57,093 bases of DNA from an uncultured Candidatus Saccharibacteria bacterium. Its GTDB lineage: Bacteria; Patescibacteriota; Saccharimonadia; Saccharimonadales; JAGQNJ01. Below the pieces are notes generated by a model, which did no database searches, was not told the DNA's origin, and worked only from the letters and a program-made list of their open reading frames with translations. Every line of letters starts with the position of its first letter. Within the stretch, counting starts at the first letter, position 1. Location of the stretch: the NCBI GenBank assembly GCA_964491925.1, contig CAZBGZ010000005.1, positions 1-57,093 on the forward strand, in the 5' to 3' direction. This document shows, one piece after another, positions 29,270-35,284 of the stretch. Made by a program: the position numbers and the translations under genes.

Positions 29270-29998
29270 ATGAAAAAAAAGAAAATTTTTGCATCGCTTG
29301 TATTATTTATTTTGGTATTTATTGGAATCCTTGCGTGGCGAACAAGAAATAATACTGAACCAACAACACAACTCAGCTCGTTTGATAAACGACAGTATTC
29401 CACCTCAAAACCCTCAAGTCTGTGGGTAGTCGTAAACAAACAAAGAGCTTTGCCCAGTGGATACCGACCAAAAACGCTTAGACAGCCTTCGGTCAAAGTT
29501 AGGATGAACGGCACACAGGAAATGCTACTGCGCGACGATGCGGCGAGTGCACTCGAAAAATTGATGAGCGACGCGAAAGACAAAGGCATGGACTTGATGC
29601 TGGTTAGTGGATACAGGTCTTATGTTTTACAAAAAGCAGTATATGAAAGAAACGTATCCGAACAGGGAAGAGAAGATGCTGACAAGACTAGTGCCCGACC
29701 TGGCCACAGCGAACATCAAACCGGGCTTGCTGCTGATTTGGGGAAATCTACAGGCAATTGCGAACTACAAACATGTTTTGGTTACAGCAAAGAGGGCAAA
29801 TGGTTAGCAAAAAATGCCCAAAACTACGGATTCATAATTCGATATCAAGATGGCAAGCAATCTGTTGTCGGCTACAGCTATGAGCCCTGGCACGTACGTT
29901 TTGTGGGGAAGGGACTATCGCGGGAAATATATAAAAACAAAACAACCATGGAAGAATTCTTTAACCTACCCGACGCCAGAGACTATTTGACTCAGTGA
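29270..29998 (+). CDS. M15B D-alanyl-D-alanine carboxypeptidase (VanY-like)
   Basis: N-terminal anchor, SGYRSY, PGHSEHQTGLA, YEPWH. Confidence 0.93.
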   Translation: MKKKKIFASLVLFILVFIGILAWRTRNNTEPTTQLSSFDKRQYSTSKPSSLWVVVNKQRALPSGYRPKTLRQPSVKVRMNGTQEMLLRDDAASALEKLMSDAKDKGMDLMLVSGYRSYVLQKAVYERNVSEQGREDADKTSARPGHSEHQTGLAADLGKSTGNCELQTCFGYSKEGKWLAKNAQNYGFIIRYQDGKQSVVGYSYEPWHVRFVGKGLSREIYKNKTTMEEFFNLPDARDYLTQ

Positions 29999-30044
29999 TA
30001 TTGAACTCTCATAAAGTCTTGATTCGGGATATACCTTGGTTAAA

Positions 30045-30944
30045 CTATTGGACTAGTTGGCCGACACCGACCCACACGTATTCCCATGGCTCGGGTTCTG
30101 GACCTTGCTCGTCAGTATTCTCTGGGTAGCTAGGAATCCAGCCCGCCCGCTTAGCCTTGTCATAATTATTGGCTTTTAGCCATTTGTAGCAATCTGTATA
30201 CTCAAATGCTCTCCCGACGCCATCATCACAGATAAGATCAACCGTGTAGCCCGTATGATGCCTAGAGTAGCCTGGAGGTGCCGTCATACCCAATACCTTA
30301 ACTACAGTTGCATCTGCATTGCCCGAAGCAATAGCATTCACATTAGCTCCAGTAGCATTTAGCCTGGACAGGAATAAGTCTCGCTGTAGATCTATAGAGC
30401 GATATCCAGAGTTAAGTGCCAATGGAACATGGTCTTTTTTAGCCAAACCTTTCAGCACTAGCCACGCGGTGTATGCCTTTGGTTGTAACAGATCGTCTTC
30501 TTTGACGTTTGGAGCGTTCGTTTTTACGATTGGTAACACGGGCACATTACGCAGAGTATAGCCTCGACTCTCTGCAATCGTGCGTATCCTAGAGTCGGCA
30601 GCAGAATTGCTTGTTATTTTAGGTAGGTCTTGGATCGGCTGAGTATTAGGATAGGCAATAGATTCGTAAAGACGTTGAAACTGATCACCTGCAAAATATT
30701 TGAAACCTACATCGCGGGCACCAGCAACCTTATTGAGTTCGGATACGGTACTAGCCGCCGCTATACCCGTGTTGGGCTTTTGCCTCAGAGCCGTTTCTCG
30801 ATAATTATTTGCTAAAAACAAAAATCCAAAGGCAACAATAATAAGCCCCAGAAGAACCGCTAATGTTCGTTTGGGATTCTTGCGATGGTTCTTTTTTTTC
30901 GTTGTATGTCTTCTATGGATAGATGTAGGTTCTATAACTCGCAT
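30045..30944 (-). CDS. M15 family D,D-carboxypeptidase-like protein
   Basis: SGYRS, PPGYSRHHTG; EPWE in place of the usual EPWH. Confidence 0.85.
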   Translation of the reverse strand: MRVIEPTSIHRRHTTKKKNHRKNPKRTLAVLLGLIIVAFGFLFLANNYRETALRQKPNTGIAAASTVSELNKVAGARDVGFKYFAGDQFQRLYESIAYPNTQPIQDLPKITSNSAADSRIRTIAESRGYTLRNVPVLPIVKTNAPNVKEDDLLQPKAYTAWLVLKGLAKKDHVPLALNSGYRSIDLQRDLFLSRLNATGANVNAIASGNADATVVKVLGMTAPPGYSRHHTGYTVDLICDDGVGRAFEYTDCYKWLKANNYDKAKRAGWIPSYPENTDEQGPEPEPWEYVWVGVGQLVQ

Positions 30945-31189: not shown

Positions 31190-31264
31190 TGGGGCGTGGC
31201 CAAGTGGTAAGGCACCAGTTTTTGGTACTGGCATTCGGGGGTTCGAATCCCTCCGCCCCAGCCA
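31190..31264 (+). tRNA. tRNA-Gln (TTG)
   Basis: TGGGGCG...CCAGT-TTTTGGT-ACTGG...GGTTCGAATCC...CGCCCCAGCCA. Confidence 0.96.
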
Positions 31265-31353: not shown

Positions 31354-31854
31354 GTGAGTAGTAGCACAAGAATTAGTTTAGAAGTAATAGATGAGCGTCC
31401 CAAACACGTGTCGTACTCGCATAAAATGAATCCTGCTTTCAGAACTCACACATCACCCTGGGGTAGCCATCAAAGTGGAGGCAGCGCGGGCAGCTTTAGG
31501 GCACATTCATTGGATGTAGTTGAGTCACTCTGTGAAGCTGATATTCCTGGGAGCAACCTAATACTTAACCATAGGAGCCCACATTCAATCGGGTCTGACA
31601 GTTTCGGCAATGCTATGAGCCATATATTAGCCATTCGAATATATGAGGTTGAACCAGATATGCTCGAGATTGTTACCTATCCAAATGGCATAGAACTACA
31701 AGAGGGGATCTTCCCGAGTAGCATTGGAATTGAGCCTGATTGTCAGTGGCAAATTAGTGTACCCCTTTATAGTGTACCGCTTTATGGTAATGGCCTAGTA
31801 ACGGTCAGCTTATGTCCAGAAGGGGCGTTTGCAGAAACACAGCCTGCCTCATAG
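31354..31854 (+). CDS. Hypothetical protein
   Basis: 166-aa ORF between tRNA-Gln and a degenerate copy of its 3' end; no motif recognised. Confidence 0.5.
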   Translation: MSSSTRISLEVIDERPKHVSYSHKMNPAFRTHTSPWGSHQSGGSAGSFRAHSLDVVESLCEADIPGSNLILNHRSPHSIGSDSFGNAMSHILAIRIYEVEPDMLEIVTYPNGIELQEGIFPSSIGIEPDCQWQISVPLYSVPLYGNGLVTVSLCPEGAFAETQPAS

Positions 31855-32094: not shown

Positions 32095-32123
32095 TTGTAA
32101 TTTATAATAATCTGTGTTATAGT
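32095..32123 (+). promoter_or_regulatory. Putative promoter for a leaderless transcript of the fusion-HAM1 operon
   Basis: TTGTAA-17 nt-TATAGT, 6 nt before the GTG start. Confidence 0.6.
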
Positions 32124-32129
32124 ATCCCA

Positions 32130-34682
32130 GTGAAAAGTTCTGAACTCGATTTTACGATTGATCGCTTTCCTGGCGTACCCGATGTGGCGGACATTGAGCC
32201 TATTGCCACTATTGTTGATATGGCGTCTGATTTTCGTGAAACGGTTGAACCGGCTTGGAGCAAGAGGACTGCGCACCCCAGCGCTCAAGAAGCAGCAGGA
32301 CCCTATATGGCTGAAGGTCAATGCGCGGTAACCATGCACCTTTTTCGTTCGATATTAGAAGAGCAATGTCCCGGTATTGATGCTAGAAACATGATCGGAG
32401 ATGTATTTGATAGAGGCGGAAAACCCTACACCACAAATCATGTATGGACCGAGGTAGAAACGGTCGGCGGTCGTACGTTAATAGTTGATCTTACTCCCGA
32501 CCAGAATGATGATCCGGATGATTTAACGCCAAAAATGCTAATTGGTTTTAGTGACGAACTAGAACAAAAAGGATATGTTTATTCGCCAAGAGAAATCGAT
32601 GAATCACCTGATTCTAACCCAAATCTAGGCCCTCGTTACGAAATCCTTCGTCAAAGATATCAAAGAGTCCAAACGCGCAGATCTTACTATGATCAACTAG
32701 CCAAGCAAAATATATATATAGTTGGCGGTGTTGCAACCGGTAAATCGGAATTGGCTAAAAACTTAGAAACTACTTTCCCCCATAAGTTCGTGGTTGATGT
32801 TGGGAATCTTTTCCGCGTCATCACAAAATCTATTCTCGAAGCAACAGAAGGATCGAAGCATTATATAAGTGGAGAACTCGTAGAACAGGTTCTGGGAGGT
32901 GATGTCGACGCCACAGATAGTTTTATCGGTCTATTGAGCAGAAAAACATCTTCATTACGCCAAACTTTAGCAGAAATAGACATTGTCGAACAGGACGGCT
33001 TAAGAAGAATGACTCGAAACGGAGAGGATGTCGAATCAGGAATTGAAACTGCTGAGATCGAATCATTAGTGCCCCTCGTTGCGGGGGTTCAAAGCGTGCG
33101 CCGTGTGGTATGGGACTGGATTGATAAAAACGCTAGCGAGAAAGATGGTTTGATTTTAACGGGGCATAGTCTGACCGACATAGACACCACCAAATTCACA
33201 GTCATACCTCTAAGGGCTTCCCCAGATGTTGTTGCCAAAAGAGCACTAGAGCGCACTAGGAGCCCCGGAACATCGCTGCATGTAGCGTCGGAACGAATAA
33301 AAAATCGTAACCAAAACGACCGTTTATTTATCACCGATGGTATTCTTGATTATCTAGGCATCGAGGCAATTGAAACAGATGGGCTAACTCAACGTGGTGT
33401 CGCGCTTGCCGCGCTTCTAAGATTTGCACGGGCAGCAAAAAATTCGGTAGAAATTCAAGCCTTGCAAGCTGAGATATCTGTCCCTAGAGCCGAATTTCAG
33501 TGGGGAGTAAACGGTCTAGTATCTGGCATACGCACAGTTGGCCAAGAAATTTTTGAATCGATAGTCGCAGACGAACGGCTGATTGATCCAGAGAATACGC
33601 CGACAGAATTTGATCTTTCGGTGCAAACAATGATTCAGTTGTGTGGCTATGAAGCGGACAGGATATGGCTAGGTGATGCTTCGATAGTCGCTGACTCAGT
33701 AGCTTTAATCAATGATGGAAAAGGTGATGAAGCCAACCAATTATTAAGTAAAGCCCTGCAGTCAGGGGACATATACTTAAATACCGAACTTGTTAGAGAA
33801 ATAGCGCTTGGGCAAATACAACGCATTAAAGAGTTCACTGCGGCACACTACAATAACGAATTTTATCTCCCAAAATTCGCTGATCCTAAAACTTCACCTT
33901 TCGACCACCCTAATCCAGAAGTGACATCAAAAGGAAGAGAAATAGTCACTTTAGATAACGGAGAACGAGAAATTGTCATCCACGAAAGATACTCCGGAAA
34001 AAGAATCGTGCTAAAACGAACGCAACCGGAAATAAGTAAAGCATATGCGAAAGGTTTACATTATTTACATGTTGGACGCGATGATGAATATAAAGCATAT
34101 GGAGCATACCTAGAAGGAGAACAATTCCCATTTGCTTGGGTGTCGTATTCACCCGTAGATCGCTCTTACAAAAAAGAAATGTTGCAATTCTTTGGCGTTG
34201 AACCTCATAGAATGCTAGAGATGACTCGTGCCTGGAACGCTAGTTGGTCACCTAAAAACTCTATGAGTTTACTTTTTTCGTTTGCTCACAGCGAACTGCA
34301 GGAGGATTTCCAGCGTGGTGTGGATAGAAAAGAACGCGACAAACCCCTAGCAGGCATTCTCACAGCGATTAACCCAAACCTCGGATTCAGAGCCAATGCA
34401 TTTAACGGCGTAGATTTTGGCATAATTGGGCTAAAACCAGCAGGATTTACTTATTTTGTTGATGAATCTGGAGAGACCAGCTATATGTCTCGTCGTGCAA
34501 TAGCCAAGAAGCTGGGTGTGCCAGAAAGTGAACTAGAATCTGATCCACGATTTACACGTAACAAAGTGCCTCTTTTACCAACCAACGAAATGGCGGTATT
34601 CTTTCGTGGCACTAAACGTTATCAACTTCCTGGACCAATCTACAGGATCCCCGACAACGCATATGTAGAATCTAAATCATGA
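32130..34682 (+). CDS. Multidomain protein: YunG-like Cys-His-Asp domain + cytidylate-kinase-like domain + Mom-like GNAT domain
   Basis: N-terminal AWS..GQCAVT..NHVW..IVDLTPDQ..RYEILRQR; middle IVGGVATGKS, DVGNLFRVIT, NGEDV, LRASPDVVAKR; C-terminal LHYLH, LEMTRAW..SPKNSMS, TAINPNLGF. Confidence 0.7.
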   Translation: MKSSELDFTIDRFPGVPDVADIEPIATIVDMASDFRETVEPAWSKRTAHPSAQEAAGPYMAEGQCAVTMHLFRSILEEQCPGIDARNMIGDVFDRGGKPYTTNHVWTEVETVGGRTLIVDLTPDQNDDPDDLTPKMLIGFSDELEQKGYVYSPREIDESPDSNPNLGPRYEILRQRYQRVQTRRSYYDQLAKQNIYIVGGVATGKSELAKNLETTFPHKFVVDVGNLFRVITKSILEATEGSKHYISGELVEQVLGGDVDATDSFIGLLSRKTSSLRQTLAEIDIVEQDGLRRMTRNGEDVESGIETAEIESLVPLVAGVQSVRRVVWDWIDKNASEKDGLILTGHSLTDIDTTKFTVIPLRASPDVVAKRALERTRSPGTSLHVASERIKNRNQNDRLFITDGILDYLGIEAIETDGLTQRGVALAALLRFARAAKNSVEIQALQAEISVPRAEFQWGVNGLVSGIRTVGQEIFESIVADERLIDPENTPTEFDLSVQTMIQLCGYEADRIWLGDASIVADSVALINDGKGDEANQLLSKALQSGDIYLNTELVREIALGQIQRIKEFTAAHYNNEFYLPKFADPKTSPFDHPNPEVTSKGREIVTLDNGEREIVIHERYSGKRIVLKRTQPEISKAYAKGLHYLHVGRDDEYKAYGAYLEGEQFPFAWVSYSPVDRSYKKEMLQFFGVEPHRMLEMTRAWNASWSPKNSMSLLFSFAHSELQEDFQRGVDRKERDKPLAGILTAINPNLGFRANAFNGVDFGIIGLKPAGFTYFVDESGETSYMSRRAIAKKLGVPESELESDPRFTRNKVPLLPTNEMAVFFRGTKRYQLPGPIYRIPDNAYVESKS

Positions 34683-35284
34683 AAATTTTAATTGCAACAA
34701 ATAATCACACTAAGTTTAATCTCGTTGCTAGACTGCTCAAGGAAACTCCTTTTAAAGAATACGACTTCGTGTGCCCGGCTGATTTAGGATTTAACTTGAA
34801 TGTTCGAGAAAAAGGTTCACTTCAGAACCGCGCGCTGACAAAGGCCGGACAGGCTCGGGAGCTGGTAAAAAAAATGGAGGTTACAGACGATATTGCTTAT
34901 TTCGTCGGGATAGATGATGGGATTCGTTTTGTTCAAGACAAAACGACCCATTCTGATAGCAAAAAGGCAACCGATCGCATACTTAAAAGAGAAAATGTAC
35001 ATATCGGTGACAGTATTACCATAGTTCGTGCTTTCGGATTCGTAGATCAAAAAGGCAATTCATTGTCCTGTATTACTAGAGTCCCTATGACCTACATAGG
35101 AAACCCAAATAATATAGAGAGAAAAGAAGGAGCATACCCTCTAGAATATGTCCTTTCCTACGAACACCAACAGAAGCCGATCAACCAGTTGAGCCAAGAT
35201 CATAAAAACATACAAAATCAAAAATATATGCTAAAAAACATCAGTAAAACCATCAACGAATTCTTAAACCTGAAACAGCTATAA
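34679..35284 (+). CDS. Divergent HAM1/ITPase (RdgB)-fold nucleotide pyrophosphatase-like protein
   Basis: ILIATNNHTK, EKGSLQNRALTKA, VGIDDG; ATGA overlap with the upstream gene; lacks the canonical GFGYDP and SHR motifs. Confidence 0.75.
   Translation: MKILIATNNHTKFNLVARLLKETPFKEYDFVCPADLGFNLNVREKGSLQNRALTKAGQARELVKKMEVTDDIAYFVGIDDGIRFVQDKTTHSDSKKATDRILKRENVHIGDSITIVRAFGFVDQKGNSLSCITRVPMTYIGNPNNIERKEGAYPLEYVLSYEHQQKPINQLSQDHKNIQNQKYMLKNISKTINEFLNLKQL

Follow-up and report, generated by a model that had tools for sequence, protein, structure and literature searches.

In the pre-replicative base substitution of phages (T4 hydroxymethylcytosine type), a modifier, a nucleoside monophosphate (NMP) kinase, a nucleoside triphosphate (NTP) pyrophosphatase and a DNA-cutting enzyme belong to one pathway, and prokaryotic viperins have linked nucleotide kinases, the modifier and the NMP kinase together making an antiviral analogue. 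The two-gene unit described here was found in the window, which is the whole analysed stretch of 57,093 nucleotides (contig CAZBGZ010000005.1, or C5, of assembly GCA_964491925.1) from the 1.11 Mb, 96% complete genome of an uncultured Candidatus Saccharibacteria bacterium. The unit and its relatives differ from the T4 type in having a Mom-type GNAT as the modifier, cellular hosts and, as the DNA enzyme, an Nth-like glycosylase, and from the viperin systems in that the latter possess a radical-SAM enzyme acting on the sugar and have no HAM1, glycosylase or amidase arm. The Mom protein of phage Mu has recently been found to move glycine from Gly-tRNA to adenine N6 in double-stranded DNA (PMC13219725), and Mom proteins fused to restriction-type nucleases, as well as momylation systems in bacterial genomes, have been reported (PMC7824862). 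Kongming (KomABC; bioRxiv 10.1101/2024.12.20.629578) resembles the unit in combining an enzyme that alters a base with phosphorylation by an NMP kinase and a protein of the HAM1 fold. Its base-altering enzyme is a deaminase, its kinase comes from the phage, its HAM1 is dead through an Asp to His change and its effector is a SIR2 protein; the unit has a built-in kinase and a HAM1 that seems active but has a new base pocket, and no SIR2 was found in it.

The unit, which probably handles a non-canonical nucleotide, is real, conserved and apparently undescribed. No description of this architecture was found in the literature searched; earlier comparative surveys (Iyer et al. 2009, 2013), outside it, may mention related Mom neighbourhoods, and the novelty is provisional and rests on gene context and residues. 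The unit consists of an 850-aa and a 201-aa open reading frame (ORF) with an ATGA overlap and contains the following features:

32130..34682, + strand: fusion gene of 850 aa with a GTG start, coding for the YunG-like domain, the Cmk-like kinase, the helical linker and the Mom-like GNAT (Pfam, AlphaFold, Foldseek, VIA)
32202..32684, + strand: YunG-like domain, aa 25-185, with C65, H104 and D120, optional in the family (Pfam, residue conservation)
32691..33455, + strand: Cmk-fold NMP kinase, aa 188-442 (Pfam, VIA, alignment to E. coli Cmk)
33456..33926, + strand: conserved helical region, aa 443-599, with no family match, preceding the Mom-like domain and also present in kinase-less relatives
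33927..34646, + strand: Mom-like GNAT, aa 600-839 (Foldseek, VIA, residue alignment)
34679..35284, + strand: divergent HAM1-fold protein of 201 aa, a predicted NTP pyrophosphatase, translationally coupled (Foldseek, conserved residues)

The fusion protein and its HAM1-fold partner

All the motifs quoted in a preliminary description of this DNA are present in the 850-aa protein (AlphaFold model with a mean predicted local distance difference test score of 84.7; 20 homologues of the fusion found in the homologue search), and the assignment of its C-terminal part to the Mom-family GNATs is borne out by the structural similarity of the model. The Mom-like domain matches Mu Mom (8BV8) with a Foldseek E-value of 3.3e-6 and a VIA Z of 15.2 (root-mean-square deviation (rmsd) 3.6, 199 aligned, aa 600-839), and in an unbiased structure search of 48,161 chains the best GNAT was Mom (Z 14.7), the next GNAT having a Z of 10.9. 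The Pfam Mom profile (PF25680) matches the 850-aa protein with an E-value of 0.033 and 14.3 bits against a curated cut-off of 27.1, which several relatives pass, scores of 37.5 and 68.6 bits being reached. An HMMER scan for the family yielded 672 cluster representatives at E 0.001 and 80 at 1e-30.

Residues H644, Y645, R700 and S713 correspond to H58, Y59, R111 and S124 of Mu Mom, that is, to four of the seven residues named as its active site (H58, Y59, R111, S124, D149, R151 and Y159; PMC13219725), and N748 and N750 stand where Mu Mom has D149 and R151. The same pattern is seen among 173 domains of the clade, in which the four positions are conserved in 159, 158, 172 and 166 cases, respectively, and D149 is replaced with Asn in 167, R151 with Asn in 136 and Y159 with Phe in 137, in agreement with hhalign. 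Since D149 and R151 are placed around the flipped deoxyadenosine in the Mu Mom model and are needed by Mu Mom (PMC13219725), a different acceptor is plausible. Judging by its residues, the family is a distinct Mom clade with the site changed where the Mom model holds the flipped base, and it is likely still a transferase. It shares with Mu Mom the fold, the four residues and an insertion after the GNAT core, but differs in having about 11% identity, the N, N and F replacements, an extra helical region, the kinase and YunG fusion and no nuclease partner, and in occurring in cells and not in the phage collections searched.

The proposal that aa ~190-430 form a cytidylate kinase was confirmed by Pfam (Cytidylate_kin, E 9e-11, aa 197-418) and by comparison with CMP kinases (VIA Z 19.0, rmsd 3.4, 215 aligned, aa 188-442), the score against the (d)CMP kinase equivalog TIGR00017 (40.9 bits) being far below the cut-off of 135.55. 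The P-loop K205 and the NMP-site arginines are kept, and the Cmk motif DGRD is changed to TGHS; at the positions of Cmk S36, R131, D132 and R188 there are V, H, S and F, with R41, R110, R158, R181 and D185 retained. The alignment to E. coli Cmk comprised 44 of 46 sequences, not de-duplicated, as two distant fusions did not align. Within it, K18 is conserved in 43 sequences, D35 in 44, R41 in 43, R110 in 42, R158 and R181 in 43 each and D185 in 38; conversely, R131 is changed in all 44 and D132 and R188 in 43 each, S36 is replaced by a hydrophobic residue in 27, and the DGRD motif (129-132) reads TGH[N/S/T] across the fused-kinase family. As S36, R110 and D132 contact cytosine, and Yersinia Cmk depends on R110, R131 and R188 for its function (PMC3603445), the fused kinases are not ordinary CMP kinases. 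That the ATP site and some of the NMP site are so well conserved suggests that they act on an altered pyrimidine nucleotide.

The second gene was described as having a HAM1/ITPase fold, and HAM1/ITPase proteins indeed top its Foldseek list (E 4.6e-10), with the score against TIGR00042 (RdgB/ITPase) of 22.6 bits being far below the cut-off of 145.35. Residues T7, N9, K12, E44, K55, D79 and D80 are invariant in 19 of 19 sequences, in all of which the triphosphate-site residues T8, N10, K13 and K53 of RdgB are matched, E41 being kept as well. The FGYDP and SHR motifs, which serve purine recognition in the HAM1/RdgB ITPases, were found in none of the 19. D79 and D80 lie in a GIDDG motif on the strand after the K55 helix, and MAFFT alignment with RdgB does not place them on D68/D69. 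The protein appears to retain the catalytic Asp (D69 in RdgB) and resembles an active pyrophosphatase whose base pocket is new. In the defensive HAM1 protein KomB the catalytic Asp is exchanged for His (bioRxiv 10.1101/2024.12.20.629578), where this family has the invariant Asp-Asp in 19 of 19 members, the equivalence of the positions being judged from motif and topology. This, together with the lack of any SIR2 among the genes seen, speaks against the earlier suggestion of a Kongming-like sensor, and the more general idea of a modified-nucleotide system gains support from the altered base-binding and retained catalytic residues of both the kinase and the HAM1 protein. A further HAM1 is encoded elsewhere in the genome.

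The N-terminal domain, initially likened to YunG proteins with a papain-type Cys-His-Asp triad, matches YunG (PF24585) weakly (E 0.046, 14.3 bits; relative P0131, 3e-5 and 24.6 bits; cut-off 27). The triad is well preserved, with Cys in 34, His in 35 and Asp in 35 of 37 domains (near-copies included), but structure searches gave no confirmation of the papain-type fold: no match emerged by sequence, nor was there one among the top-ranking matches of the full model, results that are uninformative on the fold. The topology in the AlphaFold model, with Cys where a helix begins and His and Asp on neighbouring strands, fits a papain/transglutaminase-like fold, and a relative with Mom and YunG domains is automatically named "transglutaminase-like" in the Atlas. 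The YunG-like domain is optional in the family, is degenerate in some members (P0009, L024) and occupies different positions, lying N-terminal here, on the C-terminal side of Mom-like domains in a separate clade and N-terminal to the glycosylase in P0283; these three different fusions tie it to the Mom-like system. It is predicted to be a cysteine amidase or acyl hydrolase and may be an amidase taking off an acyl group; an acyl relay is also possible.

Related loci and partner genes

The neighbourhoods of 39 related loci (18 from genomes and 21 from metagenomes) were compared with that of the window, and the resulting 40 loci were merged at 90% identity into 28 non-redundant ones. Their hosts include Patescibacteria, gut Clostridia and Bacilli, Streptomyces, Ktedonobacterales and others, and integrases or resolvases are frequent among the neighbours. 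As anticipated in the preliminary description, the Mom-like gene co-occurs with HAM1 in other genomes: a member of the same HAM1 subfamily follows it in 27 of 40 loci (16 of 28 non-redundant), with a gap from -62 to +47 bases in 16 loci. The divergence of the HAM1 proteins is correlated with that of the Mom domains (Mantel rho 0.56, 0 of 5000 permutations, 16 loci), a result which shared descent alone gives. Three of the 12 non-redundant loci without this HAM1 have less than 400 bases downstream, and at six of the 12 there is either a NUDIX (L002, L003, L019/20) or a YjjX-type NTPase gene (L005, L025, L038) within two genes. NDK adjoins the unit at three loci (L004/26, L024 and L019/20), and a gene resembling a nucleotidyltransferase-NDK fusion (by eye, no Pfam match) is present at L002, L003 and L023.

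These arrangements bear on the explanation that the modified nucleotide is a second messenger, sensed by HAM1, which then activates the Cys-His-Asp or the Mom domain as an effector, as in Kongming. The tight translational coupling and the correlated divergence would be expected from it, the latter with the reservation already given, but the invariant Asp-Asp where defensive HAM1s have His, the lack of YunG in most HAM1-bearing loci and the replacement of HAM1 by NUDIX or YjjX in others make it the least probable of the explanations weighed here. Neither the SIR2 effector (KomC) nor the deaminase (KomA) was found among the genes flanking the unit in the window or the recurring neighbour families.

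A glycosylase gene follows in 21 of 40 loci (12 of 28 non-redundant). Its product is Nth-like (hhalign 99.2%) and keeps Nth K120, D138 and the four Cys, with SLRTTLE in place of Nth SAQATD and Arg in place of Q41, and belongs to a subfamily of 161 clusters at E 1e-40. In the FastTree phylogeny the glycosylase loci form one subclade and the window lies in another, its sister. It was also considered that YunG and the glycosylase might be exclusive alternatives; this fits the loci compared as well as the contig-length matches (0 of 12, by eye), but was rejected as a rule because P0283 fuses both.

It appears rather unlikely that the Mom-like domain modifies DNA directly in the manner of Mu Mom, protecting or marking the genome, with the other parts processing nucleotides from turnover. 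The full-length Mom fold including the DNA-binding insertion, a glycosylase partner showing that the modified base reaches DNA and the presence of momylation systems in bacterial genomes (PMC7824862) are all in line with such a role. On the other hand, no restriction nuclease is linked to the unit, in contrast to the nuclease-fused Mom proteins in the same source, Mu Mom D149 and R151 are replaced, the kinase and NDK would recycle the modified base to random positions, and the glycosylase would erase the mark.

The versions of Cmk (TIGR00017), RdgB/ITPase (TIGR00042) and Nth in the unit and its relatives have the folds and catalytic residues of the housekeeping enzymes but differ in the changed base-recognition residues, in scores far below the cut-offs (Cmk, RdgB) and in being extra to the normal copies in several genomes. 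Canonical copies apart from the unit were found for cmk in two of five genomes, HAM1 in three of five and HhH-GPD in four of five; apart from the fusion and a weak match on contig C2, the genome of the window has no canonical Cmk. Replacement of housekeeping genes was thus ruled out where separate cmk, HAM1 or nth copies exist, two Dojkabacteria assemblies showing only the fused kinase.

Thymidylate-synthase-like and PfkB genes are located at two of the six NUDIX/YjjX loci. The thymidylate-synthase-like gene next to two loci, as well as the T4-type layout of modifier, NMP kinase, NTP pyrophosphatase and DNA-cutting enzyme, would agree with base substitution of the phage type, in which the modified nucleotide replaces the normal one and HAM1 destroys the canonical triphosphate, which in a cell means depletion of deoxynucleoside triphosphates. 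No viral copy was found in the collections searched, though, the Nth-like pocket is built for abnormal bases and substitution throughout the genome of a cell is unlikely, so this explanation is very improbable.

Several loci deviate from the common organization. In one subclade (L005:9434-13662, L025:4918-9058; P0018, P0047, P0049, P0054, P0057) the kinase P-loop is lost and HYLH is changed to SNLH or CNLH, and two of its loci face an operon of YjjX NTPase, thymidylate-synthase-like and PfkB genes. At L002:6667-20067 from Streptomyces, which may be a nucleoside natural-product cluster, the Mom-like gene is situated among NUDIX, APH kinase, Sua5, LOG-type and HAM1 genes and an apparent xanthine-dehydrogenase set, and at L004:2917-10812 the unit lies amid genes for a nucleoside phosphorylase, His phosphatase, pyrophosphatase, MazG, Maf, GNAT and NDK. 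The three-gene unit of L014 has a queuosine-salvage family gene upstream (L014:1668-2615) and, downstream of it and PfkB, a cytosine methyltransferase with an unknown partner (L014:8438-10469). The Mom-like domain of L006:10016-10993 is fused to DUF3768, with a serine recombinase adjoining, and the distant one of L049 (G021:C101:1-1585) has a C-terminal CYTH-triphosphatase-like domain (by eye), a possible transferase-phosphatase pairing. In more distant clades, genes for a separate AAA_17 kinase and a different HAM1 stand side by side with the Mom-like gene at L048, a divergent HAM1 occurs at L047, and L046, L078 and L039 have no partners. A cluster of the Druantia DruA family (PF14236) appeared with a low TM-score among the Mom-like neighbours in the Atlas structure search with P0171.

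An anti-phage role, one of those suggested previously, finds little support in the gene context. When 148 of the 204 listed neighbours were scanned, two matches were credible, namely the cytosine methyltransferase of L014 and JetD of L016, the remaining ones resembling generic ABC, TatD or NUDIX proteins; a defence island was rejected on this count, which has no background rate. PADLOC 2.0 gave no real match for either gene of the unit, and the glycosylase matches only the 221-position HhH profile labelled REase_II there.

Genomic setting of the unit

The surroundings of the unit include two further features:

31190..31264, + strand: tRNA-Gln(TTG), bordering a site with variable cargo and lying outside the unit
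32095..32123, + strand: promoter-like site TTGTAA-17-TATAGT, ending 6 bases 5' of the GTG start and not above chance for the region

The preliminary description presented a two-gene unit with its own promoter beside tRNA-Gln. The ATGA overlap holds, and tRNA-Gln is indeed located upstream, about 870 bases before the start of the unit, but the promoter is doubtful, as promoter-like sites in the region are no commoner than chance (9 found versus 10.9 expected); the site, if used, would yield a leaderless mRNA. Between the tRNA and the unit there is an unannotated ORF of 166 aa (31354-31854, + strand), which matches nothing in Pfam, NCBIfam, PHROG or PADLOC and has no paralogue elsewhere in the genome. 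Directly before the tRNA, at 29270-30944 of the window, two convergent VanY-type D-Ala-D-Ala carboxypeptidase genes are found, which are kept in relatives.

The cargo after tRNA-Gln in relatives ranges from less than 2 kb to about 13 kb and is of unrelated content (13 regions compared); in L073 (G431:C3), a relative from the same order, a type I restriction-modification set lies directly after the matching tRNA, most other cargo at the site not being defence-like. For the DNA of the unit there was no match among those listed in the 30 relatives searched, with nine candidates per genome scored, and its GC content and GC content at third codon positions are similar to those of the flanks. The unit is a rare piece of accessory cargo. 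An integrative element with an att repeat was rejected, as the tRNA-Gln end is not repeated near the unit, and so were a viral origin (the fusion and the glycosylase have no match in viral contigs) and a phage or plasmid origin (the Mom-like domain has no match in the phage and plasmid collections searched); the viral structures matching the Mom-like domain are distant Mom-type domains only.

In the protein profile search, five of 401 genomes of the phylum matched, including that of the window. So patchy a spread counts against a cassette for detoxification or salvage of foreign modified nucleotides or nucleoside antibiotics, in which acylation and phosphorylation would inactivate or recycle the compound, HAM1 would clean the pool and the glycosylase would repair DNA. 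Such a cassette would suit the named hosts, most of which have small genomes (0.9-1.7 Mb) and are likely nucleotide scavengers, as well as the absence of an effector in the loci compared, the scarce defence context and the fact that three of the five parts are removal enzymes. The Mom-type catalytic residues, however, imply a dedicated transfer reaction and the NDK neighbours point to the making of a triphosphate, so that this explanation is decidedly improbable.

Proposed function

The suggestion of a single non-canonical nucleotide follows from the fact that every partner acts on nucleotides or abnormal bases, keeps its catalytic residues and has an altered base pocket, and from the kinase, HAM1 and glycosylase being extra to housekeeping copies where checked. 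The fusion to an NMP kinase and the nearby NDKs favour a free mononucleotide which is made and then phosphorylated. Forward synthesis, with the unit building such a nucleotide and keeping it controlled, is given somewhat less than an even chance. The Mom-like domain would transfer an amino acid from a charged tRNA to the exocyclic amine of a base, most likely N4 of the cytosine of (d)CMP, the fused kinase with its altered cytosine pocket would phosphorylate the product, and a host or neighbouring NDK would raise it to the triphosphate. Three removal steps may accompany this synthesis: the HAM1 enzyme would cleave the modified triphosphate to give the monophosphate again, the YunG-like domain with its Cys-His-Asp triad would strip the acyl group and, in the sister subclade, the Nth-like glycosylase would excise the modified base from DNA. 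The likely purpose would be conflict, the analogue poisoning DNA synthesis of an invader or competitor and the removal arms protecting the cell; such a role is suggested by the patchy, mobile spread and by analogy with the viperin-linked kinases.

Several points weigh against forward synthesis or against its details. Any named base is held less firmly than the synthesis itself: the choice of cytosine N4 relies on the ancestry of the kinase and on the roles of Cmk S36 and D132, which we take to face the cytosine 4-amino group (a literature search for confirmation gave nothing usable), and a uracil-type base also fits the D132 change. The kinase could be inactive or bind the nucleotide only, given that two residues essential in Yersinia Cmk, R131 and R188, are both changed. 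The Mom-like domain retains the insertion by which Mu Mom binds DNA, a conserved Arg-Arg included, as would be expected if DNA were the substrate, and 114 of the 173 domains, some of them fragments, were scored as Mom-only, without the kinase domain. As for the partners, L001 and L006 have ample flanks and none of them, the glycosylase loci are not independent, forming one subclade, and no HhH-GPD glycosylase was found in the genome of the window (G000). The two credible defence genes among the scanned neighbours do little for a role in conflict.

The full proposal is more tentative than forward synthesis and is regarded as possible rather than probable: the cellular Mom clade would aminoacylate a free nucleotide (for example, N4 of dCMP) from charged tRNA, and the kinase, pyrophosphatase, amidase and glycosylase would make of it a regulated poison of foreign DNA synthesis. 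If true, both the class of modified-nucleotide weapon and the natural nucleotide itself would be new. A cellular Mom clade associated with a kinase, a pyrophosphatase, an amidase-like domain and a glycosylase with altered pockets predicts an undescribed natural nucleotide together with its dedicated enzymes, and the two-gene form is small and directly testable by liquid chromatography-mass spectrometry. For the YunG domains and the 161-cluster glycosylase subfamily, it would be the first clue to a function.

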